Assembly: GCA_965112735.1 (NCBI GenBank)
Contig: OZ218952.1
Span: forward strand, 3,348,001 to 3,412,000
Reading direction: 5' to 3'
Source: Phaeosaccion multiseriatum
Taxonomy: Eukaryota; Protista; Ochrophyta, other classes
DNA: 64,000 nt
Shown one piece after another: positions 33,001 through 60,500 of the stretch. The position numbers and the translations under genes are program-made. Positions within the stretch are counted from its first letter, which is position 1; the number at the start of each line of letters is the position of its first letter. The notes below the pieces were generated by a model. The model was given only the letters and a program-made list of their open reading frames with translations. It did no database searches and was not told the DNA's origin.

Positions 33001-35824
33001 TACACAAACACACATATATTATGAATACATACATGTATTGTACGCTCGAGTGAGAGGCAAGCGCACGTGGCTCAGAGGCAATAGAAAAGTACTGCACAGG
33101 AAGGCAAGATCAACTGTGGCTGGCCAACACACTGTACTCTCTTGTTTAGGTTTCGTCCAAATCACCAAGTCCAAGTCCTGACTGCCTCACTCACCTGCCC
33201 ATGACGGGCCCGTCTGTGTTGATGAAGTCGAGGTCCTTGGGAGGCAGGCCGCAGTGCAGCAGCAGGCGGATGAACTGCTCCATCACCACCGACACTCGAG
33301 AGTCGCCCTTGAACAGCACCTTGTTGCCCATGAAGAGCGCGCCCATCAGCTGCCATCACCCAACAAGGAGGCAGACGATACGAGACAACCGCAAAAGAAG
33401 CGAGAGAAGTAAGGGGCGAGAATGTTCTTAGCGCCAACTCATCATTCACTCCCTCCCTCGATATCTCTATCTTCCTCTCTCACTGTCACTCCCTTATGCA
33501 CTCAGTCACTCACTCACTCCCTCACTTCCCCCCTCTCTACCTCACTACCTCCCTCTCTCCCTCACACTCACATTCACACTCTCTCACTCACTCACCTTCC
33601 CTCACCCTCCCTCTCCCCCTCTCTCCCTTCCTTCGTCCCTCTCTCACCTACTCCCTCACCACCTCACTCCCTCACCCTCCCTCTCCCTCTCCCTCCCTCT
33701 GTACCTCCCACCCGCCCTCCCTCCCCCCCTCCCTCTTCCCTCCCTCCCTCACCCTCCCTTTCTCTCTCTCCCTCTCTCCCTCCCTCCCCCCCTCCCTCCC
33801 TCCCTCCCTCCATCCATCCATCCATCCATCCATCCATCCATCCATCCATCCATCCATCCATCCATCCATCCTTCCTTCCCTCCCTCCCTCCATCCATCCA
33901 TCCATCCATCCCTCCCTCCCTCCATCCCTCCATCCCTCCATCCCTCCCTCCATCCATCCATCCATCCATCCATCCATCCATCCATCCATCCATCCATCCA
34001 TCCATCCATCCATCCATCCATCCATCCATCCCTCCCTCCCTCCCTCCCTCCCTCCCTCCCTCCCTCCCTCCCTCCCTCCCTCCCTCCCTCCCTCCCTCCC
34101 TCCCTCCCTCCCTCCCTCCCTCCCTCCCTCCCTCCCTCCCTCCCTCCCTCCCTCCCTCCCTCCCTCCCTCCCTCCCTCCCTCCCTCCCTCCCTCCCTCCC
34201 TCCCTACCTCCCCCCCTCCCTCCCTCCCCTCCTCCCTCCCTCACCTGCAACACGGGTATCTCGATGGGGAAGTTGAAGGGCGCCACGATGGCAGTGGGTC
34301 CGTAGGGCCAGCGGTAGCCCTTGGTCTCTTGCCCTAAGTGGTCCCCGGAGACGCCGAAGGATTGGGCCAGGAAGCGGACCTGTTGGGTAAGGGAAAGGAA
34401 TATTCGAAGGGACGCACCGAGCGAGGGAGTAGAGGAAGGGGGGGTGGGAAAGCAGGGGTTGGGGTGAAGTGGTGGAGTGGGGAAGGGGATGGAGGGAGTG
34501 GCGGAGTGGGCAAAGGATTGGGTGTAGTGTGTGTGATACGTGGAGAGCATGAGAAGATGAGGGAGCGAACAAGGGAGAAAGCGAGACAGGTCTTCACAAA
34601 GCAGCAGGGGGAAACAGCAATATCCTACGGCAGCAATAGGAAAACAAACTCGTCCTCTGATCCCATTCACCGCCCCCCCCCCGCCCCCTCCTTCCTCCCA
34701 TACACACAGCCGCACATCTTTGCTTATACCTGGTCTCCGGAAAAGTTCTCGAGGAAACGGCGCGTGACCACCACCTCCCCCTTGGCCTGTGCATAGCTCT
34801 TGGGGGCCACCCTCTGCACCAGGAGAGAGAAGAACTCTTCCACCTTAGGGTCGCGCATCACCGAGGCCACCTCTGCCGACAGCAGGCCGTAGGCGGTGTA
34901 ACGCTCGGGGTTCTTGAAGGGGTTGTGTAGCCCCGACTTGGGGCAGGACTGGAGGCTGCGGATGAAGGGCTCACCCTCGGCCAGGGAGGTGTCAGCCACC
35001 TGTTGGGGGGGTGGAGAGGTGAGGGATGAATGACGTTGCTTGTGATTGTTGGTGCCCAAACGGTCCCCTTTTAGTCCATTGTCGATTCCACATCACTACG
35101 ATGACCTCACCCGCGCCAGCGAATGAAACGATTGAACACTTACGCGAATGAAGGCATCTCCATTGAGCGGGTCCGGCAGCTGAACGTAGTCGTTGGTGCC
35201 TGCCCACGCACCGTCCACTGTGATCACGGCAGCCACGGCCAGCAGCAGGAAGAGTCGCCGGAGCAGTACATAGGGAGAAAGAAGGAAAGGAAGAGTGGAT
35301 GAGAGAGAAGAAGACAAAAAAAGCATGCCTCAGCCACAAGAAATAATCTAGTCCACTCACCGAAGTTATCCACTTGGTGGGGCGCCTTCCCCGAGAGGGT
35401 GCGCGGGTCCACTTCAGAGTCGGCATCCGTAGTAGCGGAACAAGGGGGCGGGAGGGGTGGGGGGGGGGGGTGGTTGCGTTGAGAAACGGGTAGGCCTTGA
35501 AGCCTTGGAGCGGGGAACAAAGTGGATGAAGAGAGATGCGGTTCGTGCGGAGCACAAAGCCTCAGAGCGCGGTCTTTGGCGAGCGAGAAACACTGCCCGT
35601 AGATTGAAGCAGGGCTTATTTTTTTTGAGCGAGAAGCCCCCTTTGGCCCCTGTAGTCTCCTTCTCGCATGAACAAGGGAGACGGCAACTTGAAGGCGGAG
35701 TAGTATTACCTGTGGCCCATGCGGCGAGCGTAGACATTCTTCTCAGAGCTAGAGAGCGAAGCACGGCAGGTGTTGCTACCGGCGATAACCGTCGAAGTTG
35801 GGTAAGTCTCGCTGTGGTCAACAT
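30086..35824 (-). CDS. ALDH12A1: Delta-1-pyrroline-5-carboxylate dehydrogenase, ALDH12 (plant/algal-type P5CDH), mitochondrial, ~14 exons
   Basis: Arg/Ser/Leu-rich presequence. Motifs include [94 protein letters not shown] (catalytic Cys), [30 protein letters not shown] and [10 protein letters not shown]. All junction phases I checked are consistent. Confidence 0.95.
31295..31630. repeat. (GGGA)n tract, i.e. (TCCC)n at the 3' end of a P5CDH intron
   Basis: Directly visible, ~330 bp. Confidence 0.95.
33700..34240. repeat. (CCCT)n/(CCAT)n compound tract, i.e. (GGGA)n/(GGAT)n at the 5' end of a P5CDH intron
   Basis: Directly visible. Confidence 0.95.
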
Positions 35825-35912
35825 ATATTATTGTGAAGAGGGTGAGGCAGTAATCAATAATTGAAGAAGAGAAACGGATGGCACTGGACGAAGCCCTTGT
35901 GGATCATTCCCT

Positions 35913-36762
35913 ATGAAGAGCCCTAACAACCACAGCGCAAGTTCCTCAAGGGCCTGCCACCGTGGATGGGCCTTGCTGATACTCCATGGCCACGTCAGCC
36001 GCCCAGAGGCCCTCCACATCCCACAAGGTGGGCGCTGGCTACCAGGTGCATTTGGGCCGTGCTATAAGCCCCTCCTGCCCTTTGTGATCATGGCCTCCAT
36101 GTACAGTGAGGCCTGCATCATGGGCCCTGAGCCCTACCTGCTGGAAGAACTTTTCCCTGGTGACGACAAGGAGGAAGAGTATCAGTCAGAAGCTGCCACA
36201 GAGGAGGGAGGGGGGACGGCAAGGCAGGACAACCCAGCCGAGGAGGAGAAGCAGAGGCAAGAGACGGACGGCAGCCGATGAACAGGGGAGAGGCGAAGAA
36301 AGAGGAGAGGACTCACGGTCCACCACAAGCACAGGCATAGGCACAGGCAAGGATGGCGACTGCAATGACGGTGACACCCCCTCGGAAGTGGAGGACCCAC
36401 CCGATGACAGCGGCAGCGAGGGAGGGGAGGCAGGCAACCGGTATCACCGGGAGTGCGGAGTGAGCTTGCGGCACATGAGGGCGACGGGGGTCAGAGGGGC
36501 GCAGAAGCACTACGCCGCCCTCCTCAACCAAGCGAATCGACACCGCTACACTGAGGGGCTCAACAACAAGCCAATGGACCCGAAGCAGCGCGAGTCCCAC
36601 CAAGCCCAGCACTGTAACCAGCGGCCGAAGGGCGCAGGTACATGGCTCCACCTCAAGCCAATGCGCCCAGGGGGAGTACACCACCTGACCACGCCGGAGA
36701 TGAGGAGTGCGGTGCTGAGACTAGGAGCGAATCGGAACACGAGGTACTCCAGGCCCTGCCCC
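35913..36762 (+). mobile_element. Decayed fragment of a CRE/SLACS-like (RLE-type) non-LTR retrotransposon C-terminal region
   Basis: ORF 36106-36852 contains QKHYAALL...KGAGTWLHLKP....LTTPEMRSAVLRLG...PCPK. This resembles the 'Q..L...GAGAWLxxxP...L...EFRxALxxRLG...CxxC' segment between the RT and the zinc knuckle/RLE of CRE-clade elements. It is cut off at the CxxC position by the PPR fragment. Confidence 0.5.
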
Positions 36763-37540
36763 AAGCACTCGCTCCAGAGGTACTCAGCTACAGCTCCACT
36801 ATTAGCGCATGCGCCAGGGCCAGCCAACACGTGGAGGCATTGGGTTTACTGAGGGAGATGAAGGCAGAAGGACTCGCTTCAGACGTAATCAGCTACAACG
36901 CCACCATTGACGCATGCGCCAGGGCCAACCAACACGTGGAGGCAATTGTTTTTCTGAGGGAAATGAAGGCACAAGGACTCACTCCCGATGCAATCAGCTA
37001 CAGCGCCACCATTGACGCATGTGCCAAGGCCAGCCAACACGTGGAGGCAATGCGTTTACTGAGGGAGATGAAGGCAGAAGGACTCGCTCCCGACGTAATC
37101 AGCTACAGCTCCACCATTGACGCATGTGCCAAGGCCAGCCAACACGTGGAGGCAATGCGTTTACTGAGGGAGATGAAGGCAGAAGGACTCGCTCCCGACG
37201 TAATCAGCTACAGCTCCACCATTGACGCATGTGCCAAGGCCAGCCAACACGTGGAGGCATTGCGTTTACTGAGGGAGATGAAGGCAGAAGGACTCGCTCC
37301 CGACGTAATCAGCTACAGCTCCACCATTGACGCATGCGCCAAGGCCAGCCAACACGTGGAGGCATTGGGTTTACTGAGGGAGATGAAGGCAGAAGGACTC
37401 GCGCCGGATGAAATTAGTTACAGCTCCACCATTAACGCATGCGCCAAGGCCAGCCAACACGTGGAGGCATTGGGTTTACTGAGGGAGATGGAAGGCAGAA
37501 GGACTGACTCCCAATGCAATCAGCTACAACTCCACCATTA
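36762..37540 (+). pseudogene. Truncated PPR array (~7.3 repeats of 105 bp), paralogous to the 41429-43945 gene
   Basis: Same repeat consensus (VISYSSTIDACAKASQHVEALGLLREMKAEGLAPD). It lacks the N-terminal cap and the Smr domain, has a +1 insertion at ~37491 (gagatgGaaggcag), and ends abruptly mid-repeat. Confidence 0.85.
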
Positions 37541-37549
37541 TTATATGAA

Positions 37550-37630
37550 GTACAGCATAAGGCGCTTGGCCAAGGCCTGGCCCTGCAGAGATCACCCACT
37601 GTACTCGAACGAGGTCCATTACGCGCAGGA
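37550..37630 (+). repeat. Dispersed ~80-bp element, copy A (homologous to 44744-44824, - strand)
   Basis: taaggcgcttggccaaggcctggccctgcagagatcacccactgtactcgaacgaggtccatt aligns with the reverse complement taaggcgcttggcggtggcctggccct-cagaggtcactcactctactcgaatgaggtccatt. Confidence 0.85.
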
Positions 37631-37827
37631 CTCTGGCGGGAGCATGGGAGGGGGTCGACTGAGGGAGAGATAAACAAAAAACCGCTCCTGAAGCTGTATC
37701 ACTCTCCCGTTCATATACATATTATTGTGGTATCTCTCCACTTTTTATTTTATACATATATACACGCTGGCTTTCAGATAGGCTCTCAGAGGAGAGGCGG
37801 AGAGAAGAAGCAAAAACCCCTACCCAT

Positions 37828-38060
37828 ACGATAGATAGACAATACAATGTACCGACGAACACACGATAGATAGACAATACAATGTACCGACGAACACAAG
37901 ATAGATAGACAATACAATTGTACCGACGAACACACGATAGATAGACAATACAATTGTACCGACGAACACACGATAGATAGACAATACAATTGTACCGACG
38001 AACACACGATAGATAGACAGTACAATTGTACCGACAATACAATTGTACCGACGAACGCAC
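37828..38060. repeat. 35-36-bp minisatellite ACGATAGATAGACAATACAATTGTACCGACGAACAC, ~6 copies
   Basis: Head-to-tail copies with no spacers. The later copies carry the palindrome TACAATTGTA. Confidence 0.95.
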
Positions 38061-38171
38061 GTCACGCGCCTGGAGCTCAGATGCACCGCTGAGTGGCCCA
38101 AGGAAAAGGACACCCTGAGCCTCGTGACGGGTCTCGCGCCTCTACTCCTGCCCACTCCTACCTCCTCCTGT

Positions 38172-38797
38172 CTAGTTCCGGCGGTTCGATCTAGCCAGAA
38201 TGTCGAGGATGAAGAGGAAGAGATTGATAATATCGAGGTAGAGCGTGATGGCCCCCAAAATCACCTCATCCGTCTCGAGCTTCTCCAGAATCAGTGAAGT
38301 GTCGTACAGAATGTAACCGCAGAATATCTGTGGGGAGGTGTGAGGGGGGTTGCAGCAAGGAAGGGACGACGAGGATGGAGAAAGAATCCCATACCAGTGG
38401 GTGGTTGGGAATGGCCATGGAGGCGGGGACGAGAGCGGGGGGGGGCGAGAGGAGAGAGGAGAGAGAAGGGAGAAGAGAGAGGAGGTCAGAGCTGCTGCCA
38501 GTAGCACAGGTAGGTAGGAAAGTAGGTAAGTAGGCAGGAAGGAAAGGAGGAGGGGGGGGGGGCATGAACGACTACGTGAGTGAGTCGGTGTGAGGAAACA
38601 GGGGAAGGCTGAGTGAGAGGCGTCAGGGAAGCATTTGTGCACACTCCGTTCGGCCCGTTTGGTTCCTTCGAGCGAGTAGTACTCACTGAACACACAAGGA
38701 ATCATTCACACAAGGAGGAGGAGGGGGCTCATCTCCACACACAAAACACACGCACACACACACACCCATACACACAACACACACACGCACACGCACA

Positions 38798-38842
<45 letters not shown>

Positions 38843-40066
38843 ACCAGCGCGCCCAGCGCCGCATACCCCAAGCCTGCGCTGACGCCCATCACGGCACTGA
38901 TGACGCCCCACACCATGAGCACGAGAAGGCCGCAGAAGAGGAAGCCGCCGAGGAAGGAGAAGTCGATTCGCGTTTGGAAGGTGAGCAGGGTGAGTGCCAT
39001 AAAGACAAATGCCGTGATGAGAAAGGCCTCCAGGACAAGAGGGCGCATCCCCGCAGAGGCGTAGGAGGCTGTGATCACGCTGAGTGAGGGGAGAGAGGAG
39101 AGGGGGGAGAGGGAGAGAGAGGAGGAATCAAAAGCGAGCAAGACGTACGTGGGTAAGCAGGTAGGCAGTATGGCGTCATTCGTTGGACTCGCCACGGCTC
39201 CGATTGATTCAGCGTGCCATGGTAGCATAGCATCTCTTCCAGTTGCACTGAATGTTCGCAACATGTACGTGCCATATCACTAGCACTTTGGAGCTTCCCC
39301 ACACTCCGTCTTCTCGTGGTGAAGGTACGGTAAGCGACGCTTGGACAGCCCGTTCGCCAGGGGGGGGGGGGTTACAGAGGACGGTAGAAAGGGGAAGTGA
39401 AGCCGCATACCCCGTCTTCGGAACGCAAACACCAATTATCTTGCACTTCCCCTCCCCTTGGGTCTAGCGTGACATCGATCAAACAATAGATAGCGTACTT
39501 GGACGAAGGATGGGATGCAACACCACTCCACTCCACACCACACCACACCAAACCACACCTCACCACAACAAACCAAACCACACCTCACCTCACCACAACA
39601 CACCCAACCACACGACACCACACCACACCTCACCACACCACTCCACTCCACACTACACCAAGCCACAACACACCAAATCACACCACACTACACCACATCA
39701 CAGCATACCAAACCACACCACACCATACCACACCACACCACACCCACACCACACCACACCACACCACGCCACACCACACTCCACCCTACCCCACCACACT
39801 AGTTGGTGATACACCACATCATCACATATTCGTACCCGATGGACACCGCCTCGAGGAAGGTCCAGGCGGAGAGGAGCCACATGTTAGCGGGGCTCTGCTT
39901 GCGGTAACACATGAGCACGAAGAAGGTCACCAGGCCAAGCCCTATGGAGCCGTACAGCACAAAGGCGTTGCCCGCGATGAAAGTCCTCACGCTGGTGTAG
40001 CAGGCGTCAGTGGATGGTGGATATGGGCATGGGGTGGTGGTGGTGTGTGTGTGTGTGTGTGAGTGT

Positions 40067-40131
<65 letters not shown>

Positions 40132-40353
40132 TGTATGTATGTGTGTGTGTGTATGTGTGTGTGGTTGGTCAATCGTGGGGGGGAGGGAGGAGGAAGGAAG
40201 AAAGTGAGGGGGGGGAGGGGGGGGGGGGGACGCGGTTCCGCAGCAGTGGAGAGCTCTATCGATAATCCAAATCGCTCGCTCTCCAGCCCTCTGTCTCCCG
40301 CTCATTTTCTCTGTCCCTTTCTCGTCCCCTCTCCCTCCCCCTCTCTCTGTCTG

Positions 40354-40387
<34 letters not shown>

Positions 40388-41045
40388 CATCTATCCATCT
40401 ATCTATCTGTATCTATCTGTCTCCCGTCCTTCGCCTCTCTCTCTCTCTCTCTCTCTTCGCGTACCGCTTTACAGCAAGTAATACCTGTCGTTATACATGC
40501 AGAGTGCTGAGAATCCGCTCGTAAGCAACAGCTGCACCTCGAGAATACAGTACACCTTGCGCACAAACGCTTCATATTCGCAGTGTTTTGGTGGGGCATG
40601 TGAAAACGCCAAGGGGAGACAAATGACACGATAGGCAGGGAGAGTGGAAAGGGGGCATATCAGAAGGACGCGAAGGGGATTGGCTGACGCGAAGCATCTC
40701 CCTTGGCCAAGGAAGAAGAGAAAACCAATAGAGGACCAAACGAGAGAACATTCCACGTGGAACATTCCAACGAGAGCAACGCAACGTACCCATTCTGTTC
40801 ATCATCTCCACGAGCTCCGCACTCGCCTCAACCGCAACAGGGCCGTCCCATTCAGGACCGTCGCTCACCACCTGAACTCCATGGGCCTGGGGAAGCAGCT
40901 TTCCCCCTTCAAGGTTTTCCTCATAGTCCTGGTATGATGGGGCAGCGGGGGCGGAGGCTGCCGCGAATGCCACCGGCACTTCATTCCAGGAGGGCCGCTC
41001 GCTCTCCTGTTGCTGCTCCCCGCCCTTGCGGCCCTTCCCAAACAT
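38172..41045 (-). CDS. TMBIM / Bax inhibitor-1 family, Lifeguard/GAAP-like multi-TM protein (5 exons)
   Basis: [80 protein letters not shown]...[20 protein letters not shown]. The conserved di-aspartate is present and splice phases are consistent. Confidence 0.93.
39520..39800. repeat. (CACCA)n degenerate pentanucleotide tract, i.e. (TGGTG)n at an intron 5' end
   Basis: Directly visible. Confidence 0.9.
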
Positions 41046-41428
41046 GTTTCCCTCTTCAAGAAAAAAAAGCTTGGGAAGGGAAAAAATAGTCCGTTCGTAT
41101 CACCAACAGGCGTACACCAGCTTTTTTTTCTTTTTTGTTCCAACAATGAATTATTAGTACCCTTTGTTTCTCTTCTCTTTTCACAGAATCCTGGCTGGTA
41201 ACACATTTTTCCGATGGAGAGGACTGACGAGTCAGAGGGATACGACCTCGGGGGCTAAGTTCCCCGGGGCGGTGAGACGTTACTTTTAGACCATCATAGA
41301 TGGCACTTAAGGGTTTACCACCACCACTCAATCAATTTTGCAGAAATTGGCTGAAGAATTTTGACAAACAAATATTGGGGGATACATAAGTACAGTACTG
41401 TACTCTTGCTGCTTTAGAGCTTCATCGT

Positions 41429-43945
41429 TTACCTCCCTCTTCCTCCAACCCGCATCACCACCATCCCCGGGTTACGTTCGTCTTCCCGTACTTCGACTCC
41501 TGCTCTTTCCTGCAAGTAGGCCAGCACCGCGGGCTTGAGAACGCTGACGCCGTCCTCACTGCCTCGGCCTCGGCCTGTGATGACTTTGATCTCAGCCCCC
41601 GGCTTCGCCTCTGAGAGCACGTGACGAAGCGCTGCCTTGCTCGTTCCCCTGCTGAAGTCGTGCAAGTCCATCTCCTGCCCCCCTTTCTTCCAGTGATTCA
41701 AGACCCTTTGTGATACGGCCTCTGCGTACAGCTCGTCAGCAGCCTCCTCGTCTCCTCCCTCCTGCAGAGCATCAATAACGGCGCTGTAACTGATTACGTC
41801 GGGAGTGAATCCTTCTGCCTTCATCTCTCTCAGTAAACACATTGCCTCCACGTGTTGGCTGGCCTTGGCGCATGCGTTAATGGTGGAGTTGTAGCTAATT
41901 TCATCCGGCGCGAGTCCTTCCGCCTTCATCTCCCTCAGTAAACCCAATGCCTCCACGTGTTGGCTGGCCCTGGCGCATGCGTTAATGGTAGTGTTGTAGC
42001 TGATTGCATTGGGAGCGAGTCCTTCCGCCTTCATCTCCCTCAGCAAACCCAATGCCTCCACGTGTTGGCTGGCCTTGGCGCATGCGTTAATGGTGGAGTT
42101 GTAGCTGATTGCATTGGGAGCGAGTCCTTCTGCCTTCATCTCCCTCAGCAAAACCAATGCCTCCACGTGTTGGCTGGCCTTGGCGCATGCGTCAATGGTG
42201 GCGCTGTAGCTGATTATGTTGGGAGCGAGTCCTTCTGCCGTCATCTCCCTCAGCAAAACCAATGCCTCCACGTGTTGGCTGGCCCTAGCGCATGCGTCAA
42301 TGGTGGCGCTGTAGCTGATTTCGTTCGGAGCGAGTCCTTCTGCCTTCATCTCCCTCAGTAAACCCATTGCCTCCACGTGTTGGCTAGCCTTGGCACATGC
42401 GTTTATAGTGGAGCTGTAGCTGATTACGTCTGGAGCGAGTCCTTGTGCCTTCATCTCCCTCAGTAAACGCATTGCCTCCACGTGTTGGCTGGCCTTGGCG
42501 CATGCGTTTATAGTGGAGCTGTAGCTGATTACGTCTGGAGCGAGTCCTTCTGCCTTCATCTCCCTCAGTAAACCCAATGCCTCCACATATTCGTTGGCCC
42601 TGGCACATGCGTTTATGGTGGCGTTGTAGCTGATTTCGTCGGGAGCGAGTCCTTCTGCCTTCATCTCCCTCAGTAAACCCATTGCCTCCACGTGTTGGCT
42701 AGCCTTGGCACATGCGTTTATAGTGGAGCTGTAGCTGATTACGTCTGGAGCGAGTCCTTGTGCCTTCATCTCCCTCAGTAAACGCATTGCCTCCACGTGT
42801 TGGCTGGCCTTGGCGCATGCGTTTATAGTGGAGCTGTAGCTGATTACGTCTGGAGCGAGTCCTTCTGCCTTCATCTCCCTCAGTAAACCCAATGCCTCCA
42901 CATATTCGTTGGCCCTGGCACATGCGTTTATGGTGGCGTTGTAGCTGATTACGTCTGGAGCGAGTCCTTCTGCCTTCATCTCCCTCAGTAAATCCATTGC
43001 CTCCAAATGTTGGCTGGCCCTGGCGCATGCGTTAATGGTGGCGCTGTAGCTGATTTCATCCGGAGCGAGTCCTTGTGCCTTCATCTCCCTTAGAAAACCC
43101 AATGCATCCACGTGTTGGCTGGCCCTGGCGCATGCGTTAATGGTAGAGTTGTAGCTGATTTCATTCGGAGCGACTCCTGCTGCCTTCATCTCCCTCAGTA
43201 AACGCAATGCCTCCACGTGCTGGTTGGCCTTGGCGCATGCGTTAATGGTTGCACTGTAGCTGATTGCATCCGGAGTGATTCCTTCCGTCTTCATCTCCCT
43301 CAGTAAGACCAATGCCTCCACGTGCTGGCTGGCCTTGGCGCATGCGTTAATGGTGGCGCTGTAGCTGATTTCGTTGGGAGCGAGTCCTTCTGCCTTCATC
43401 TCCCTTAGAAAACCCAATGCATCCACGTGTTGGCTGGCCGTGGCGCATGCGTTAATGGTAGAGTTGTAGCTGATTTCATTCGGAGCGAGTCCTTCTGCCT
43501 TCATCTCCCTCAGTAAATCCATTGCCTCCAAATGTTGGCTGGCCCTGGCGCATGCGTTAATGGTGGAGCTGTAGCTGATTACATTGGGAGCGAGTCCTTC
43601 TGCCTTCATCTCCCTCAGTAAACCCATTGCCTTCACGTGTTGGCTGGCCTTGGCGCATGCGTCAATGGTGGAGCTGTAGCTGATCACACCTGGCGTGAAG
43701 CCTTCCTTCTTAATCTCTTGCAGAAGTGCCAAAGCGCCCCTCCACCGCCCGCACTTCCCAATCGCGGTAATCGCAGCACTCAAACAGTACAGGTTGGGCT
43801 TGAGGCCCTCTCGCCGTGCGCGCTCCAGAGTAGGTGCAACCCCCTTCCAATCCTTGCTCCTCCCCAGATCCTGGATCTCCCTCATGAGTCGTATCTGCCT
43901 CGACCTGTCACTTCCTCTAGTAGAATAGCAGGACCATTGCAGCAT
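41429..43945 (-). CDS. Intronless P-class PPR protein (18 near-identical repeats plus degenerate caps) with C-terminal Smr (small MutS-related) nuclease domain
   Basis: 838-aa ORF. The 35-aa/105-bp repeats occupy exactly 41798-43687. The C-terminus has MDLHDFSRGTSKAALRHVL...IKVITGRGRGSEDGVSVLKPAVLAYL...NPGMVVM, which contains the Smr motifs xDLH, ITGxG and NPG. Confidence 0.95.
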   Translation of the reverse strand: MLQWSCYSTRGSDRSRQIRLMREIQDLGRSKDWKGVAPTLERARREGLKPNLYCLSAAITAIGKCGRWRGALALLQEIKKEGFTPGVISYSSTIDACAKASQHVKAMGLLREMKAEGLAPNVISYSSTINACARASQHLEAMDLLREMKAEGLAPNEISYNSTINACATASQHVDALGFLREMKAEGLAPNEISYSATINACAKASQHVEALVLLREMKTEGITPDAISYSATINACAKANQHVEALRLLREMKAAGVAPNEISYNSTINACARASQHVDALGFLREMKAQGLAPDEISYSATINACARASQHLEAMDLLREMKAEGLAPDVISYNATINACARANEYVEALGLLREMKAEGLAPDVISYSSTINACAKASQHVEAMRLLREMKAQGLAPDVISYSSTINACAKASQHVEAMGLLREMKAEGLAPDEISYNATINACARANEYVEALGLLREMKAEGLAPDVISYSSTINACAKASQHVEAMRLLREMKAQGLAPDVISYSSTINACAKASQHVEAMGLLREMKAEGLAPNEISYSATIDACARASQHVEALVLLREMTAEGLAPNIISYSATIDACAKASQHVEALVLLREMKAEGLAPNAISYNSTINACAKASQHVEALGLLREMKAEGLAPNAISYNTTINACARASQHVEALGLLREMKAEGLAPDEISYNSTINACAKASQHVEAMCLLREMKAEGFTPDVISYSAVIDALQEGGDEEAADELYAEAVSQRVLNHWKKGGQEMDLHDFSRGTSKAALRHVLSEAKPGAEIKVITGRGRGSEDGVSVLKPAVLAYLQERAGVEVREDERNPGMVVMRVGGRGR

Positions 43946-44150
43946 ATTGATGGGCAGTAGAGTCGGTACGCCTGACTCCTACTGCTGCGGGCCCTCTTCT
44001 ATTTCTGCTAAGGCAGGAGGAGCAGCAGGTTCTGACAAGCCCCCTCAACGATATCGCTCTCATCATCAGCAATGAAGGTCTCCTTCTTCTCCCTATCCCC
44101 CCTCTTCCAGCCAGCTGTGAGTTTGGGTGGAGTACCAACCTTCCTTCTTT

Positions 44151-44572
44151 GTATCGCCCAAATCGCTCGTTTTTTTCAGAAAAAAGCGATGAAGACCGAA
44201 AGACTATGTGTCGGTGGGCATCTCAAAGAGCTACACGAAGAGATGTAGCGCTTCTCCCAGCGTCATTTTGCTACAAGTGTCAAAAAAAACAAAAAAACAT
44301 TTATTTGGGGCGAATTGGGCGATTCTTACGCAAATCGAGTGTTAATTAATTTTAATGAAGGGAAAATCAAAACAAATCGCCCATTTTTTAGGGATCGGGC
44401 AGCTGCTCCTGCGGAAATGCTGAAAAAACTGAAAGAAGGAAGTGTCGAAAGACGAGAGACTATGTGTCGGTCGACATCTCAAAGATAAAAGAGCTTCATC
44501 GCTTCTCCAAGCGTCATTTTCCTAACCTCGTCCAAAAAAAATATTGTGGGTGATTCGGGCGATTCTTGCACA
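44151..44572. repeat. Two degenerate tandem AT-rich units (~255-bp spacing) with short terminal inverted repeats, MITE-like
   Basis: 'agactatgtgtcggt..catctcaaaga..cgcttctcc.agcgtcatttt..gggcgattctt' occurs twice (~44200-44328 and ~44457-44567). gtatcgcccaaatcgctc (44151) is the near reverse complement of gggcgaattgggcgattc (~44308). Confidence 0.7.
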
Positions 44573-44743
44573 CCATGGCAATATTAAATCCCCCCCCCCC
44601 CCTTTCAGCGTAGAGAGTTGTATCCACCTTAGTCTCCAGACTGCCCTACCGTGCGCTTGCACGGCGGTGAGGGCAGGAGCCTCAAACAACCACACGCACC
44701 CCCATAACAAAACGCGTTCTTCCGATAGGTTTTGATTGCTTTC

Positions 44744-44824
44744 TCCTGTGCCCAATGGACCTCATTCGAGTAGAGTGAGTGACCTCTGAGGGCCAGGCCA
44801 CCGCCAAGCGCCTTAGGAGTGTAC
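44744..44824 (-). repeat. Dispersed ~80-bp element, copy B
   Basis: See copy A at 37550-37630. Translates as KALGGGLALRGHSLYSNEVHWAQE. Confidence 0.85.
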
Positions 44825-45301
44825 GCACCGCGCCGCCCCCACCTGCTGGGCACCTCTGCTGAGCACCTCACCCGCACCTCTAAGCTATCGAAAGGAGAGC
44901 GCTTTACATGTAACGTTTCGAAATGTCTAATGTCATTATTATGATATGACATAACGAGGGCAAGGTTGCCAGTCCCCCAACGCCCCAGAGCAGGGGAACC
45001 ATCTGCAACACATACCCCTCTGTACAGGTAAAATACAAAGACAAAAGCACCGTGTTCGTCAACGGCCAACACGCTGGATGCCGCACACATCTACTGTAAG
45101 CTATCTATAGCCATCATGATCAAGACGCTCGCTCCACTGGAGGAGCGGGTCCGAACCCAACATACAATACCCACCACCATCCCTCCATCGGAGACACGGC
45201 CGCGGCGCATCGAAGGCCGCACAAAAGCCCCCCCCCTCATTGCCCGAGGTACAAGCAGGGCGCCTTTCCCTCCTCCTCCACGAGCCCTCTTGCGGGAGAA
45301 A

Positions 45302-48300
45302 CTAGAACCAATCGCGGTGGCCCTTCTTCTCCTCCTCCTCCCCCCGCATCTCTCTCGGTCGCCCCTCCTCAATTGAGGCGTCCACTCCCCCCACACCCTC
45401 CTCTCTCTCCTTCTCCTCCTCCTCCCCCCCTTCCCCTTCCTCTGTAGAGGTCGAGTTCGTCGGCGTGGTCAGGCCAGCCCCCTCCGGTATGACCCTCACG
45501 CCCCCCTTCCCTCCTCCCTCCCCCTCCTTCTCCTCCTTCTCCTCCTTCTCCTCCTTCTCCTCCTCCTCCTCGCTCTGCTCCTCGCCCTCCTCCTCCACTC
45601 CATCCACCCCTGCGTTAATCTCGGCAATTGTGGTCAAACGGCGCCTTGCACGCTTCACCATGTGCTCCGATCGCAATTTCCTTCCCCCCCTGCCCAAGCC
45701 CGCCCCGCCAAATGAGGTTGGGTTCCTAACCGGGTACCCAAGCATGCCCATCTTGGCGCGCTGAGCCTTCCTGGCTGCTGACCGCTGTGGCCTCGGCGCA
45801 TGCGGTGGCGGAGCGAGCACCACTCGACTGTCCGTCTCTCGATTGTTGGTCCCATCCCCTCCCCGCTCTCCCTCCCGTTTCTCCTGAGGCGTGGAGGGGG
45901 CGTCATCATCGTCTTCCTGCGGCCCTCGTAATCGGACCCGGTCGAGAATGCCCTGAATGTCAAGTCCTTCCCCGGGAGGGGGGCTGTCAGCCCTACCCCC
46001 TCGAGATCGAGATCGTTGAAGGTGGTCCACACGTGCCACTCCCCTATCGTCCCTCCTCCTACTGCCGCTGCTGCTGACACCGCTGCTGAGACTGCTGCTG
46101 CTTATGGTGCTGCTGCCGTCCCGCTCGTCAAAGTAACCGTCAGCACCGTCAAAGCCACGGTCACGCTCCTGCCCTCCACTGCCATCTGCCCCTTCCTCAC
46201 GCGAGGGGGGAGTTCTATACACGAAGTCCAGAGGAGACACTTGCACGCCTCCTCCTTCTCCGTCTCCTTCTTCCCCTGCCGCCGCCATGGAGGAAAAACC
46301 GCCGGAGGATGTAACTGAACACACGGCTATGTCGCTCGGTGTATCTGTGTCATCGCTGACGCCGCTCACGGCATCACTGACACCACTCACGGCGCTCCGG
46401 CCGCTGCTGCCTCCTTCCTCGGCGAAGTCGCTGTTCATGTCGCTATCGTTATCATGCTCATCGCTGCTGTCGTCCACGCTGCCTACACCGCACACGTCGC
46501 TGTCACTGCAACTACCACCACCGTCAATGTACCCACTCCCCCACCGACCATTACGACCGTCCTCATAGGCGCGCTGGCACTCGTCCTCTTGTTGCTCCTC
46601 CTCCGTGGGGTGGGCAATCTCCTCAGCACAGGCCCGGCGCAGCTTGGACATTCTCCTCACCACACGCACATGCAGCCTGTACATGCCATAGATGAGCAGG
46701 CCAGCTGCAAGTATGGGCACGACCACCAGCGCACTGTGCATCTCAAAGAGGGCTTCCGCACCCACCATGGCGAAGCCGACAGGCACCGGGATGAAGATCT
46801 GCACACAGAGGAGGGGGGGGAGACAGACAAGAGAGAGATAGGGAGGTGAGGAACTGCTGACGGCAAGAGGCGTGTCGATAACAACACAAAAACCGAAACT
46901 GAAACTGACTGCCAGCACCAAAAGAGCGGAAATACTCCTCTCTCACCCACATGCACACTCACACACGCAAGCACGAAACCCACCATCACGCGATAGACAG
47001 GAGACACCACACAACCATCATGCCCACCCACCCACACACGCACAAGCACACGCACACGCACACATGCACTCACCTCTACGATAAGATCTCTCCAGTGCTC
47101 ATTGGCGGACATGTACACCACAAAGAACACAATCTGCAGCAGCGCCGTGAAGACCCACACCGCCCACACGCCACACGTCTTCAACACGTATCGCAGGCGG
47201 TCTCTGAACGAGTCGCCCTCCAGCTGCGGCTTCCGCTTCTTCGCCTCATCCATGGACCTTCCCGGGATGTAGGAGCGGTACACACTGCCTCGGGGCACAA
47301 TGCCCGTCACAATGTAGGAGCTTACTTCGAGCTCAGGATGGGCGCGTGCCACCTGCATGGAGGCGCTGTAGGCGCTGTTGTGCTTGAAGACTCTCCTCCT
47401 CGTGAGCGAGTCGTAGGCCACAAATGGCAGCAGCATGAAGAGCACGGACACGCGGATGGGCTCGAACACGAAGATGGTCAGCGTGGTGATGAGGAGGTAC
47501 ACCTGTGCTCCATCGATCATCGAAAGGGGCATACGGGAGACAGTGAGTCAGTCAGGGAGTAAAGGGGTGACCGAGGTAAGTGAATGAGTGAGTCAGTGAG
47601 TTGGTCAGTGAGTTGGTCAGTCAGTCAGTCAGTCAGTCAGTCAGTCAGTGAGTGAGCGAGACTGGTGAAGGGGGTGAGTTAATGAAGGAGTGAGTGAGTA
47701 GGTGAGTGAGTGGGTGAGTGAGTGAGCGAGAGTGAGTGAGGGGGTGAGCTAATGAAGGAGTAAGTGAATGACTGACTGAGCGAGTGAGTGAGTCAGTGAG
47801 TGAGTGTTCTTCCTGCTCTACCGCACAACGTACCTGAATGAAGGTCATGGAGGTGTCGTGCGAGTGGCGCAGGCCAAACAAGAACACGTAAAACAGGCAC
47901 CCCAGCGCCAGCACTATAAGGAAGACCCACGCCATAACCTTTGGGAAAGCCCCCACAGTCCTCCAACTCTCGCTCGACCAGTTGCGTGGGCGGAACCAAG
48001 ACGCCTGTAGCATCCTCCTCCGCTGCAGCTTGAGGCTGTCAATCACGGCAGCATCCAGCAGCAGCAGGTTTCGGTCAAAGTCGTCCTCCAAAGCGTCGAT
48101 ATCCATCTCCAGCCGGGCCCCTATCCGCGCCTGCTTCTCAATGAGCCTGGTCTGGCGTCTCAGCCAAGCGTCCGACAGGTTCTCCATGCCGCCCTTGGAG
48201 GCAACTAGACGCTCCACCTCTTGTGAGGTGCGAACACATGCCACACGCTGCACTTGCGCGAGAAGCTCTCTCCGCTCGTGCTGCCAGTTACGGGCCTTGT

Positions 48301-54500: not shown

Positions 54501-57500
54501 AGGACGGACATTCCTCCGACAAACTAAATGTGTAATTGTATGAATGCCGCTGTTTCCTTCTGCAAGACAAAACAGAAGACGTGCCCGCCTCTGTTCCCTG
54601 AGTGATTCCGCCACACATACACACACACATACACACACACAACATACACACACACACACACACACTCACAGATAGTTCCCGTGCAGTGTTGGCCTCTGCG
54701 AGTCTCGAGGTGATGCCCTCCATCTCCCGCTCCGACACGACGCGGTCAATGCCCGTGAGACTCCACTCCACCTCAAGGGGGAGGCCCGCCCCCCCGCCTG
54801 TGGCGGTTGCATCGAGCGTGAGGTCTGCACAAGAGGAAAGACTCTCTGGCACTTGGAGGAAAATGCGCGGGGAGTTGTCCACGGCATCGGCAATCTGCGG
54901 TAGGGAGGGAGGGAGGGGAAGGGTGGGGAGAGGGAGGACAGAGGTGGGTGGAAAGGATGGAGGGAGGGAGAGGGAGGGAGGAGGGGGGCGGGAGGGGGAT
55001 GCTATCAAGTTTGCTTCTTCTCTCCCTTACCCCACTCCCCACCCACTCAATAACGAACAATCAGTCAGTCAGTCAATCAATCAAATCAATCACACTCGAC
55101 AGGTAAAAACTCAAAATGCGTGTGACTCACATTGACGGAAACCTCCGAGAACTGTTTGTAGAGCGGTACTGCCACAGACCCCCTCTCCGCCTCCGTGGCC
55201 AACACCCCCTTGCGCAGGCCCATCCAATCCCCGAGGCCAAACACGTTGTCTTCCCCCAGCACGGGCAGATGAAGCTCCACCACTATGGTTGTGGGGCTGC
55301 GAAAGCGGCATGTGGAGCCGCCCTCCACGTCGGAGCCTGTGAAGTCAAACACTTGGCCGCAGTTGAACTCTCCAACTTCGTTGATGGACACTCCGGAGGC
55401 GGCCGACAGTCGCGCGGCGTCTATTGTCAGCGGCAAGGGGGGGAGGCATAGCATAATGGGGGGCGTGTGTGTGTGTGTGCGTTGGAAGGTGAAGGTTGTT
55501 TACGGGAATACATCACACAAGCAACAAGAGGGGCAAAGGGGGGCGTTAGGGCAATTGAGGGCTATGGAACCGAGAGGCTGCCGCGGGTGGATGCAGTGCA
55601 GGAGAGCAACACGCATATCGATGGAGGGAGTCACTACCATGCCATACACACGCACCAGTCTACACTTGTCTCTGGAAAAAGACAAAAGCTACGAGCACAC
55701 ACACGTACCGGATAGGGTGACGAGCACGCTCAAGCCCGAGGCTTCGAACCGCGTTGAGCTGATCGTGACGGGTGTGAATGGAGACTGGGAGGGGCCGATG
55801 AAGTCCACGAACACGAGCTCCGGGAAACCCGTTTGCAGCACCTGGGGAGAAGGGGCGGTGGACAAGTGGAAGGAAGTAGTGGAATGAACATGCGGGCGGG
55901 TGCAGCGAGGATGGCAGGAACACAAAGGGAGGGGGGAAGGGAGGCGTGAGGGGTGAGCCAGATGGCGGAAAGGGGTGAGAGAGGGAAAAGACATCAGACA
56001 GAACAACCACCACAACAACAACAACAGCGGTAGGCAGCCCCTTACCGTCAAAATCTGCTCCTGCACGGCAACGAACACCTCCAGCTCCACCCCCTCGACG
56101 GTGAAGGCCTCCACACCAGGTATGTCGTCTCTATCGGGCGCGTCCACTGTCTGCAAACGTCGCTTCTTTCCCTTCATCTCCTGCCCGTGGTGTTGCGGTT
56201 GCTGCTGCTGCTGGAGGGCTAGCCTCCGACCACTCGTACTCAACACTTGCACGGGCGTGCCCATGATGTCGGAGAGCAGGGAAGGAAGGATCACACCCGC
56301 TTCGTCTGTGGGTAGAATACCATAAAGCACCACAGAGCTAAGGGTTGTGGTTGGAGCCGGCGTCTCCTCTGCCGCAGGCGTAGGCGTCTCCTCTGCCACA
56401 GGCGCTTCCGTCTCCTCTGCCACAGGTGCTATTGTCTCCTCTGCCACAGGTGCTGGTGTCTCCACAGCCACAGGTGCTTCTGTTTCCACAGCCACAGGCG
56501 TCTCTGTCACCTCTGCCACAGGTGCTGGTGTCTCCTCTGCCACAGGTGCTTCTGTTTCCACAGCCACAGGCGTCTCTGTCACCTCTGCCACAGGTGCTGG
56601 TGTCTCCTCTGCCACAGGTGCTTCTGTTTCCACAGCCACAGGCGTCTCTGTCACCTCTGCCACAGGTGCTGGTGTCTCCTCTGCCATAGGGGCTTCTGTT
56701 TCCACAGCCACAGGTGCTTCTGTCTCCTCTGCCATAGGTGCTGGTGTCTCCACAGCCACAGGTACTTCTGTTTCCACAGCCACAGGTGCTTCTGTTTCCT
56801 CAGCCACAGGCGCTTCTGTCTCCTCTGTCACAGGCGTAGGCGTATCCTCTGCAACAGGTGCTTCTGTTTCCACAGCCAGAGGTGCTTCTGTCTCCTCTGC
56901 CATAGGTGCTGGCGTCTCCACAGCCACAGGTACTTCTGTTTCCACAGCCACAGGTGCTTCTGTTTCCACAGCCACAGGCGCTTCTGTCTCCTCTGCCACA
57001 GGTGCTGGTGTCTCCTCTGCCATAGGGGCTTCTGTTTCCACAGCCACAGGTGCTTCTGTCTCCTCTGCCATAGGTGCTGGTGACTCCACAGCCACAGGTA
57101 CTTCTGTTTCCACAGCCACAGGTGCTTCTGTTTCCTCAGCCACAGGCGCTTCTGTCTCCTCTGTCACAGGCGTAGGCGTATCCTCTGCAACAGGTGCTTC
57201 TGTTTCCACAGCCACAGGTGCTTCTGTCTCCTCCGTCACGGATGCTGGTGACTCCACAGCCACAGGTGGTTCTGTTTCCACAGCCACAGGCGTCTCTGTC
57301 ACCTCTGCCACAGGTGCTGGTGTTTCCACAGCCACAGGTGCTTCTGTTTCCACTGCCACAGGCATCTCGGTCACCTCTGCCACAGGTGCTGGTGTCTCCA
57401 CAGCCACAGGTGCTTCTGTTTCCACAGCCACAGGCGTCTCTGTCACCTCTGCCACAGGTGCTTCCGTTTCCACAGCCACAGGTGCTTCTGTCTCCTCTGC

Positions 57501-60500
57501 CATAGGTGCTGGTGTCTCCTCTGCCATAGGTGCTTCCGTTTCCACTGCCACAGGTGCTTCTGTTTCCTCAGCCACAGGCGCTTCTGTCTCCTCTGTCACA
57601 GGTGCTGGTGCCTCCACAGCCACAGGTGCTTCTGTTTCCTCAGCCATAGGCGTCTCTGTCACCTCTGCCATAGGTGCTGGTGTCTCCACAGACACAGGTG
57701 CTTCTGTTTCCACAGCCACAGGCGTCTCTGTCACCTCTGCCACAGGCGCTGGTGTCTCCACAGCCACAGGTGCTTCTGTTTCCACAGCCACAGGCGTCTC
57801 TGTCACCTCTGCCGCAGGTGCTGGTGTCTCCACAGCCACAGGTGCTTGTGTTTCCACAGCCACAGGCGTCTCTGTCTCCTCTGCCTCAGGTGCTGGTGTC
57901 TCCACAGCCACAGGTGCTTCTGTTTCCACAGCCACAGGCGTCTGTGTCACCTCTGCCACAGGCGCTGGTGTCTCCACAGCCACAGGTGCTTCTGTTTCCA
58001 CAGCCACAGGCGTCTCTGTCACCTCTGCCACAGGCGCTGGTGTCTCCACAGCCACAGGTGCTTCTGTTTCCACAGCCACAGGCGTCTGTGTCACCTCTGC
58101 CTCAGGTGCTGGTGTCTCCACAGCCACAGGTGCTTCTGTTTCCACTGCCACAGGCGTCTCTGTCACCTCTGCCACAGGTGCTGGTGTCTCCACAGCCACA
58201 GGTGCTTCTGTTTCCACAGCCACAGGCGTCTCTGTCACCTCTGCCACAGGTGCTGGTGTCTCCACAGCCACAGGTGCTTCTGTTTCCACAGCCACAGGCG
58301 CCTCTGTCACCTCTGCCTCAGGTGCTGGTGTCTCCACAGCCACAGGTGCTTCTGTTTCCACAGCCACGGGTGCTTCTGTCTCCTCTGCCATAGGTGCTGG
58401 TGTCTCCACAGACACAGGTACTTCTGTTTCCTCAGCCGAAGGCGCTTCTGTCTCCTCTGCCACAGGTGCTGGTGTCTCCACAGCTACAGGTGCTTCTGTT
58501 TCCACAGCCACAGGCGTCTCTGTCACCTCTGCCGCAGGTGCTGGTGTCTCCACAGCCACAGGTGCTTCTGTTTCCACAGCCACAGGCGTCTCTGTCACCT
58601 CTGCCACAGGTGCTGGTGTCTCCACAGCCACAGGTGCTTCTGTTTCCACAGCCACAGGCGTCTCTGTCACCTCTGCCACAGGTGCTGGTGTCTCCTCTGC
58701 CACAGGTGCTTCTGTTTCCACAGCCACAGGCGTCTCTGTCACCTCTGCCACAGGTGCTTCTGTTTCCACAGCCACAGGCGCCTCTGTCACCTCTGCCTCA
58801 GGTGCTGGTGTTTCCACAGCAACAGGTGCTTCTGTTTCCATAGCCACAGGCGTCTCTGTCACCTCTGCCACAGGCGTCTCTGTCACCTCTGCCACAGGTG
58901 CTGGTGTTTCCACAGCCACAGGTGCTTCTGTTTCCACTGCCTCAGGTGCTTCTGTTTCCTCAGCCACAGGCGTCTCTGTCACCTCTGCCACAGGTGCTGG
59001 TGTCTCCACAGCCTCAGGTGCTGGTGTCTCCACAGCCACAGGTGCTTCTGTCACCTCTGCCACAGGTGCTGGTGTCTCCACAGCCACAGGTGCTTCTGTT
59101 TCCACAGCCACAGGTGCTTCTGTTTCCACTGCCTCAGGTGCTGGTGTTTCCACAGCCACAGGCGTCTCTGTCACCTCTGCCACAGGTGCTGGTGTCTCCA
59201 CAGCCTCAGGTGCTGGTGTCTCCACAGCCACAGGTGCTTCTGTCACCTCTGCCACAGGTGCTGGTGTCTCCACAGCCTCAGGTGCTGGTGTCTCCACAGC
59301 CACAGGTGCTTCTGTCACCTCTGCCACAGGTGCTGGTGTCTCCACAGCCACAGGTGCTTCTGTTTCCACAGCCACAGGCGCTTCTGTCTCCTCCGTCACA
59401 GGCGTAGGCGTCTCCTCTGCAACAGGTGCTTCTGTCTCCTCTGCCATAGGTGCTGGTGTCTCCACAGCCGCAGGTGCTTCTGTTTCCTCGGCCGCAGGCG
59501 TCTCAGTCACCTCCGCCACAGGTGCTGGTGTTTCCTCAGCCACAGGTGCTTCTGTTTCCACAGCCACAGGCGTCTCTGTCACCTCTGCCACAGGTGCTGG
59601 CGTCTCCACAGCCACAGGCGCCTCTGTCACCTCTGCCTCAGGTGCTGGTGTCTCCACAGCCACAGGTGCTTCTGTTTCCACAGCCACGGGCGTCTCTGTC
59701 ACCTCTGCCGCAGGTGCTGGTGTCTCCACAGCCACAGGTGCTTCTGTTTCCACTGCCACAGGCGTCTCTGTCACCTCTGCCTGAGGTGCTGGTGTCTCCA
59801 CAGCCACAGGTGCTTCTGTTTCCACAGCCACAGGCGTCTCTGTCACCTCTGCCACAGGTGCTGGTGTCTCCACAGACACAGGTGCTTCTGTTTCCACTGC
59901 CACAGGCGTCTCTGTCACCTCTGCCACAGGTGCTGGTGTCTCCACAGCCACAGGTGCTTCTGTTTCCACAGCCACAGGCGTCTCTGTCACCTCTGCCACA
60001 GGTGCTGGTGTCTCCACAGCCACAGGTGCTTCTGTTTCCACAGCCACAGGCGTCTGTGTCACCTCTGCCTCAGGTGCTGGTGTCTCCACAGCCACAGGTG
60101 CTTCTGTTTCCACAGCCACAGGCGTCTCTGTCACCTCTGCCACAGGTGCTGGTGTCTCCACAGCCACAGGTGCTTCTGTTTCCACAACCACAGGCGTCTC
60201 TGTCACCTCTGCCACAGGTGCTGGTGTCTCCACAGCCACAGGTGCTTCTGTTTCCACAGCCACAGGCGTCTCTGTCACCTCTGCCACAGGTGCTGGTGTT
60301 TCCACAGCCACAGGTGCTTCTGTTTCCACAGCCACAGGCGTCTCTGTCACCTCTGCCACAGGTGCTGGTGTCTCCACAGCCACAGGTGCTTCTGTTTCCA
60401 CAGCCACAGGCGTCTCTGTCACCTCTGCCTCAGGTGCTTCTGTTTCCACAGCCACAGGTACTTCTGTTTCCTCAGCCGAAGGCGCTTCTGTCACCTCTGC

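Follow-up and report, generated by a model that had tools for sequence, protein, structure and literature searches.

The stretch of Phaeosaccion multiseriatum contig OZ218952.1 analysed here (64,000 nt, hereafter the window) carries on its reverse strand an open reading frame whose predicted product joins a long PPR array to a C-terminal Smr domain. The parts of this gene are as follows.

41429-43945, reverse strand: PPR-SMR open reading frame of 838 aa, from ATG to stop without an intron
43688-43945, reverse strand: N-terminal 86 aa, with about 16 basic, serine-rich residues followed by two degenerate PPR-like units (weak PPR matches, hydropathy)
41798-43687, reverse strand: 18 PPR repeats of the P type, each 105 bp long; their mean nucleotide identity is 88%, and 18 of 18 have canonical residue pairs at positions 5 and 35
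41693-41797, reverse strand: divergent capping PPR-like helix pair and linker
41432-41692, reverse strand: Smr domain, residues 752-838 (87 aa), with M-D-L-H at 759-762, T-G-R-G at 790-793 and N-P-G at 825-827

The frame contained no internal stop in its 838 codons, and Tandem Repeats Finder reported a period of 105 with 18.1 copies at 41783-43684, bearing out the 18 repeats of 105 bp that had been claimed in a previous sequence-only reading of the locus. Pfam PPR_2 matched the 838-aa protein in 18 units (E=3e-175), the repeats being tandem 35-aa helix-turn-helix units of the P class. The structure model of the repeats was helical, and its top matches were designer PPR structures. The residues at positions 5 and 35 followed exactly the order given before (SN,SN,NN,SD,SN,ND,SD,ND,SD,SD,ND,SD,SN,SN,SN,NN,ND,ND), an order that corresponds to AAYGAUGUGGUGAAAYUU in the plant code. 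All 18 pairs belonged to only four canonical kinds (SN, SD, ND and NN), connected with one another by single transitions, mostly AGC/AAC at position 5 and GAY/AAY at position 35. The purine codes were all of the S type, as in RFLs (described in PMC5075784).

The first 22 aa of the protein include 5 R, 4 S and 1 D, and no hydrophobic signal peptide was seen in the hydropathy profile. With an N-terminus that is short and has no such peptide, plastid import is unsupported, and the N-terminus is at most compatible with mitochondrial import by way of a short presequence. A coding-like stretch with a stop lies in frame directly 5' of the gene; the original start of this copy may thus be missing, and its true start is uncertain. 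The description of the gene as the only clearly intronless intact one in the window holds for the stretch from ATG to stop, but an upstream exon is possible and other very long open frames are also present in the window. The gene is probably algal. A neighbouring exon for P5C dehydrogenase had its best match in the xanthophyte Tribonema minus (69%), followed closely by green plants and brown algae; an ochrophyte host is plausible.

Pfam did not call an Smr domain on the whole 838-aa protein, and on the isolated C-terminal domain PF01713 matched with E=1.4e-5 and 25.6 bits, just below the cut-off of 25.7 bits. Leaving PPR proteins aside, the PDB sequences that matched best were the Smr domains of N4BP2/B3BP. 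The AlphaFold model of the C-terminal part (pLDDT 89, from an 11-row alignment) had as its top structural match a chain of the plastid RNA polymerase, with Z of 11.9 over PPR plus Smr, a subunit which we take to be the PPR-SMR protein pTAC2; it also matched the Smr domains of MutS2 (Z 9.4, rmsd 1.8) and B3BP/N4BP2 (Z 8.1). The counterpart of the LDXH motif is MDLH, in which the first residue is M (V in a variant among the paralogues), and that of TGXG is TGRG, identical to the motif of human B3BP. TGXG is needed for RNA cleavage by SOT1, as stated in section 3.2 of PMC6662315. At least 21 paralogue variants fall in the Smr domain (21 of the 40 listed out of 145), nine synonymous and 12 nonsynonymous, and among those listed D760, H762, TGRG and NPG are untouched. 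The proposed fusion of a PPR array to Smr thus holds up by the Pfam E-value, the fold matches and the intact DxH and TGxG motifs; sequence and model together indicate that the gene at 41429-43945 is a true PPR-SMR.

The repeats had been called almost identical, with two switching code residues on a largely invariant scaffold. Pairwise comparison of the 18 repeats confirmed a close similarity, but the number of differences ranged from 0 to 18 per 105 nt and the mean identity was 88%. Within the repeat, 16 of the 35 residues were invariant. Positions 22, 1, 6, 13 and 21, however, equalled or exceeded the two code positions in variability, with 35 and 5 ranking 6th and 7th. The likeness to TAL effectors therefore fails in one respect, the confinement of variation to the code residues, since these five other positions vary as much. 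The chance of finding both 5 and 35 in the top seven was P=0.035 over 35 positions and 0.12 over the 19 variable ones, a weak enrichment seen in a single gene, and four of 33 third codon positions reached a diversity similar to that of positions 5 and 35.

The piN/piS ratio among the repeats was 0.40 overall. It was 0.87 at positions 5 and 35 taken together, or 0.91 without the duplicated block described below, 1.75 at position 1 and 0.89 at positions 6, 9 and 13. The PPR scaffold is under purifying selection, because piN/piS is 0.40, 16 residues are invariant and 18 of 18 codes are canonical. Positions 5 and 35 stand at the maximum diversity that two states allow; the dN/dS-type test by repeat position that had been suggested gave no excess of amino-acid over synonymous change at these positions in the main array, with piN/piS not above 1. 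The balanced S/N and D/N states could be simply inherited from an ancestral array.

Recombination has made the main array a mosaic. Once the duplicated block was taken out, 48 of the 136 informative site pairs showed all four gametes, residues 5 and 35 were unlinked across the 18 repeats (Fisher P=0.37), and repeats 2 and 7 had an exact 85-nt tract in common. The recent and repeated reassembly claimed for the array is supported by these observations and by an exact duplication of three repeats.

42642-42950, reverse strand: first copy of the 309-nt exact duplication, repeats 8-10
42327-42635, reverse strand: second copy of the 309-nt exact duplication, repeats 11-13

The four differences closest to the 309-nt block all lie at repeat junctions, and one of them makes SD into SN. 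The identical run is 6 nt below the period of 315 nt. As a plain doubling in the assembly would be expected to leave at least 315 identical nt and only 309 are found, the sequence makes it more likely that the duplication was a real recent event.

The locus also holds a second array with the same repeat, and several repetitive elements flank the two arrays.

36763-37539, forward strand: second array, 7.4 units of the same repeat, beginning and ending mid-repeat, with a frameshift in unit 7 and without Smr
41192-41314, no strand assigned: short element of very high copy just downstream of the gene, its summed depth in read contigs reaching about 700-1300 times that of a single copy
44153-44572, no strand assigned: AT-rich upstream stretch with two related copies of about 250 nt, 74-79% alike across three segments, as well as an inverted repeat of 14 nt
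44744-44815, reverse strand: 73-nt segment, 85% identical to 37558-37630

The second array is on the opposite strand, 3.9 kb from the main gene; its codes are SD,ND,SD,SD,SD,SD, and four of its six whole units use only bases also present in the main array. The segment at 37558-37630 follows the second array, and both 73-nt segments are oriented alike relative to each array. The AT-rich stretch is likely a mobile-element remnant. Rfam gave nothing near the gathering score over 35300-45400. A position of the second array inside a non-LTR retrotransposon remnant, considered from a likeness of motifs, gained no support, as neither Pfam nor the PDB gave a match and Atlas scores were at most 0.82. 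Other long tandem coding arrays, with periods of 72 bp and 36 bp, crowd the window.

To look beyond the window, contigs from public reads of four runs (X1, X3, X5 and X8, out of eight listed) were aligned to 40700-41902 at 80% likeness. X1 and X3 come from the same sample, possibly that from which the window itself derives, and have single-copy flank depths of 55 and 538, respectively; in these flanks their contigs were without differences from the window. Over Smr plus cap (17 positions), the summed depth was 24-114 times single copy in X3 (median 44) and 31-226 times in X1 (median 100), and over one repeat unit (four positions) it was 660-1300 times in X3 and 1000-2050 times in X1. The contigs matched on this 1.2 kb numbered 2257 and 1625, and 395 for X5. 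Summed contig depth is a rough measure and not a copy number, and the X1 and X3 estimates are about twofold apart. The genome is thus likely to hold Smr-bearing copies in the tens, with repeats in the hundreds to a thousand. The search for paralogues that had been recommended hence showed, through the second array 3.9 kb away and the high summed depth, that the main array is part of a family. X1, X3 and X5 all contained a paralogue whose Smr has an 85-nt gap, and together with the broken second array it means that part of the family is junk.

A contig of X5, which is from another sample and study, runs from 40790 straight into the exon that ends at 40569, with the GT-AG intron between them, part of the neighbouring gene, removed; this splicing identifies X5 as RNA. 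The X5 contigs cover, among other places, the Smr domain and the repeat of the PPR-Smr family, and members of the family are therefore transcribed. For the main copy, the 3' flank was uncovered in X5 and only the other allele was found at 41707 and 41711, with the reservation that contigs show presence and not absence. The PPR-Smr family is multi-copy, young, recombining and transcribed, transcription being that of members and not necessarily of the main-array copy. Run X8, from organism B, contained a 233-nt Smr piece at 92% identity as well as repeat pieces, and had cover neither of the neighbouring exon nor of the high-copy element. Close relatives of the C-terminal 157 aa were found neither in metagenome contigs (372 candidates) nor in viral contigs (14 candidates), and a word-indexed search with residues 717-838 gave none among 408 candidates.

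It had been stated that ordinary PPR proteins have highly divergent repeats. The lag-35 protein identity, 0.89 in the main array against a median of 0.35 in 255 fetched relatives, agrees with this as a general rule, but five of the 255 reach 0.8 and are equally homogeneous. With a longer comparison span, none of the first 120 relatives reached this value. All five of these proteins end in an Smr-like domain, identified by a home-made profile in P0136, P0247 and P0214, by eye in the Symbiodinium protein P0134, and by profile comparison in P0154 (50% probability, E=1.7e-4). The same home-made Smr profile detected a comparable domain in 75 out of 256 proteins, the query included, indicating that the PPR-Smr architecture is common in algae.

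P0154 is encoded in a Chlamydiales MAG with seven related loci. Five of them are intact (8, 12, 5, 3 and 8 repeats, with differing code strings), one is split and one matches only at the N-terminus. In a comparison that left out one 37-aa unit and five terminal units, the 35-aa internal units (n=19) showed 95% DNA identity with the highest entropy at positions 5, 12, 35 and 33, and the 34-aa units (n=11) showed 93% identity, entropy peaking at 32, 5 and the last position. By these sequences the Chlamydiales family is closer to the TALE analogy than the algal gene is, but it carries altered Smr motifs. Among bacteria, a PPR-SMR of Legionella longbeachae has already been published. Homogenised PPR-Smr arrays are thus met again in dinoflagellate-type proteins and in the seven-locus Chlamydiales family. 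The host range makes an independent origin of these arrays likely. A tree of the Smr domains (78 rows, quick method, 7 of 75 branches starred) required five changes against a mean of 5.9 for shuffled data, and 50 of 500 shuffles were as low, so that it gives no count of the origins of homogenised arrays.

We propose with moderate confidence that the locus belongs to an expanded PPR-SMR family which evolves like the plant RFL and Chlamydomonas NCL genes and carries its own predicted nuclease. One repeat would read one base via the residues at 5 and 35, with the protein running N to C along the RNA from 5' to 3'. Under the plant PPR code (reviewed in PMC11094755), the predicted binding site would be about 5'-AAYGAUGUGGUGAAAYUU-3', and the Smr domain, by the precedent of SOT1, would cut close to its 3' side. 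Each repeat has about 85 nt of exchangeable scaffold between positions 5 and 35, so that unequal crossing-over and conversion could re-pair the codes and alter the number of repeats. By analogy with the plant RFL and Chlamydomonas NCL genes, the family would likely keep in check RNAs that change fast, such as selfish ORFs, introns and invaders, as a form of surveillance whose most likely site would be the mitochondrion or the plastid. The predicted 18-mer had no match in the window with up to three mismatches. In viral sequences, where a search for it had been advised, it brought no support: viral contigs gave 11 exact matches, a number attributable to chance, since two rearranged versions used as controls gave 5 and 10.

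Neutral or selfish turnover of the repeats is an alternative that we regard as rather unlikely though far from negligible. Here one or a few ordinary organellar PPR-SMR genes would have been multiplied along with mobile elements, the array would have been homogenised by the mechanics of tandem repeats, the mixture of S/N and D/N would be old and kept by purifying selection, and the code strings would be by-products rather than an adaptive repertoire. The remnants of repeat elements beside both arrays, the broken state of the second array and the wealth of other tandem coding arrays in the window (72-bp and 36-bp periods) fit this explanation, as do the conservative sites 6, 13 and 21, which are as variable as 5 and 35, and the four of 33 third positions with similar diversity. 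It accords less well with an 838-codon frame with piN/piS of 0.40 and 18 of 18 canonical codes, with Smr motifs free of variants among those listed, or with the family transcripts in X5. Were the target fixed, moreover, selection would be expected to oppose both the duplication of the block and the altered code that distinguishes repeat 13 from repeat 10.

A second alternative, which we consider improbable, concerns the last step only: the family would diversify in RNA binding and not cut, the Smr domain docking or contacting RNA and the proteins stabilising, blocking or recruiting. The algal Smr is short and lies just below the Pfam cut-off, and the top structural match is a subunit of the plastid RNA polymerase; both nuclease-linked motifs (D and H of LDXH, and TGXG) are nevertheless kept. 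According to PMC6662315 and PMC12787238, activity has been proven for one plant PPR-SMR only, and other PPR-SMRs act in stability, translation, splicing or transcription complexes. That the array, or its length of 18 repeats, is an assembly artefact is highly improbable: repeats 8-10 and 11-13 are identical over 309 nt and the array is too long for short contigs to span, yet the identical run falls 6 nt short of the 315-nt period with four differences at junctions, the units otherwise differ from one another, reads agree with the flanks without differences and contigs carry 105-nt tandem joints, so at most three repeats are in doubt and the gene itself is secure.

Building on the RFL- and NCL-like family reading, a wider and more tentative possibility is a protein-only, recombination-generated repertoire of RNA endonucleases, in which tens of PPR-Smr genes, drawing on a single pool of interchangeable repeats with four code states one transition apart, would be constantly re-aimed at invading or selfish RNAs. 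Its design would have arisen anew in dinoflagellates and a Chlamydiales bacterium, and would then represent a widespread kind of natural programmable ribonuclease that has gone undescribed.

The gene resembles the known PPR-SMRs (SOT1/PPR53, GUN1, SVR7, pTAC2 and those of heterokonts and dinoflagellates) in its P-class array, C-terminal Smr, DxH and TGxG. The known sets are small and conserved (eight in Arabidopsis, one to five per dinoflagellate), whereas the algal family likely comprises tens of young paralogues, and its repeats, unlike those of the known sets, are interchangeable, with 88% nucleotide identity within one gene. The architecture itself has been described in brown algae and diatoms (PMC3858433, section 8) and in dinoflagellates (PMC12787238). 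SOT1 cleaves RNA specifically and has been retargeted in vitro (PMC6662315), and for many plant PPR-SMRs the reported function is not cleavage but a part in stability, splicing or translation (PMC12787238, PMC6662315).

RFL genes are described in PMC5075784 as intronless, with 15-20 P motifs, paralogues most alike within species, gain and loss of motifs by unequal crossing-over, and SN/SD purine codes. The algal gene is like them in its number of P motifs, its intronless ATG-to-stop frame and its recombining paralogues. Selection at positions 5 and 35 is reported for RFL-PPRs, and the piN/piS of the algal array there is 0.87-0.91 against 0.40 overall. RFLs are presented in the review PMC11094755 as being without a nuclease and probably recruiting one; they form an angiosperm clade, whereas the algal gene carries Smr and belongs to a different lineage and repeat type. 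The NCL genes offer a surveillance-type analogue (PMC8635915, PMC13126933): the OPR-RAP proteins of Chlamydomonas are lineage-specific paralogues with a C-terminal putative nuclease, in which single substitutions create new destabilised targets (PMC8635915). Those proteins, including NCC1 and NCC2, are built from OPR repeats and a RAP domain, and the algal protein from 35-aa PPR repeats and Smr.

TAL effectors share with the algal array the interchangeable tandem repeats, the reading of one base per repeat and the two-residue code. TALEs bind DNA, their variation is confined to the code residues, and TALENs are engineered fusions; in the algal array five other positions are equally variable. 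The plant RFL-PPRs and the Chlamydomonas NCL OPR-RAP genes are closer analogues of the algal gene than TALENs are. Likeness in the repeat itself extends to designer PPRs and to the SACEK-type PPRs of dinoflagellates and heterokonts, which have consensus-like repeats with A-C-x-K at positions 10-13 (PMC12787238); the algal repeat, similarly consensus-like, has N/D-A-C-A-K/R, and differs in its fusion to Smr and in being homogenised in the DNA itself.

No published description of such a PPR-Smr family or pattern was found by title or abstract opening, in a search that had most subscription journals outside its reach. The parts and the logic are known separately, from SOT1, RFL and NCL, and their combination at this scale was not found within that same literature. 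PPR-SMRs are known as few and conserved organelle factors, and the RFL repertoires known to evolve fast have no nuclease; a family that is large, young and joins both would, if confirmed, reveal RNA-level conflict in a lineage without a described case in the literature searched. With many paralogues, four clean codes and predictable targets, it would also allow the PPR code to be tested on a natural system other than plants. A consensus-like PPR array with its own endonuclease has been called the ideal programmable RNase in a review (PMC11094755). The algal and Chlamydiales families resemble natural versions of that ideal.

The surroundings of the PPR-SMR gene (41429..43945, minus strand) and of the second, broken array of its repeat (36763..37539, plus strand) were annotated, and the following features were found there and elsewhere in the window.

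34730-34999, minus strand: plant-type P5C dehydrogenase (ALDH12) exon, which served solely for placing the host
35865-36760, plus strand: acidic coding-like stretch, frameshifted, immediately ahead of the second array
37828-38035: AT-rich 36-bp unit in 5.8 copies of 97% identity, 290 bp past the second array
about 38200-41045, minus strand: intron-bearing gene between the main and second arrays
41192-41314: high-copy element of approximately 120 bp in the gap that separates the next gene from the stop of the PPR-SMR frame
56362-60477, minus strand: very long coding tandem array (57 x 72 bp), mucin-like, rich in E/T/P/V/A
61193-63194, minus strand: very long coding tandem array (56 x 36 bp), mucin-like, rich in T/P/A

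The gene separating the two PPR arrays was taken by eye to be of the Bax-inhibitor-1 type, and its first intron (40570-40789) was borne out by a spliced contig. The depth of the high-copy element was several hundred to more than 1000 times that of single-copy sequence. The acidic stretch received no identification from Pfam, PDB or Atlas. Long exons were found downstream of the two mucin-like arrays, and these look like parts of a surface protein.

Among the proteins compared with the main gene, P0136, P0247, P0134 (from Symbiodinium) and P0214 were further homogenised SACEK-type PPR arrays, each with a Smr-like domain at the C-terminus. A PPR protein, P0004, carried an internal Smr domain in addition to one at its C-terminus, a layout resembling two fused PPR-SMR units.

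A bacterial family of homogenised PPR proteins with Smr-like domains was also detected at seven loci (L001-L007) of one Chlamydiales MAG (G001). The family had a 170-aa N-terminus in common and 3-12 repeats of a 34- or 35-aa unit, and the DNA identity among the repeats was 93-95%. Positions 5 and last were among the most variable, the code string differed from copy to copy, and transposase-like neighbours were noted by eye. This Chlamydiales family is a strong lead to a TALE-like system.
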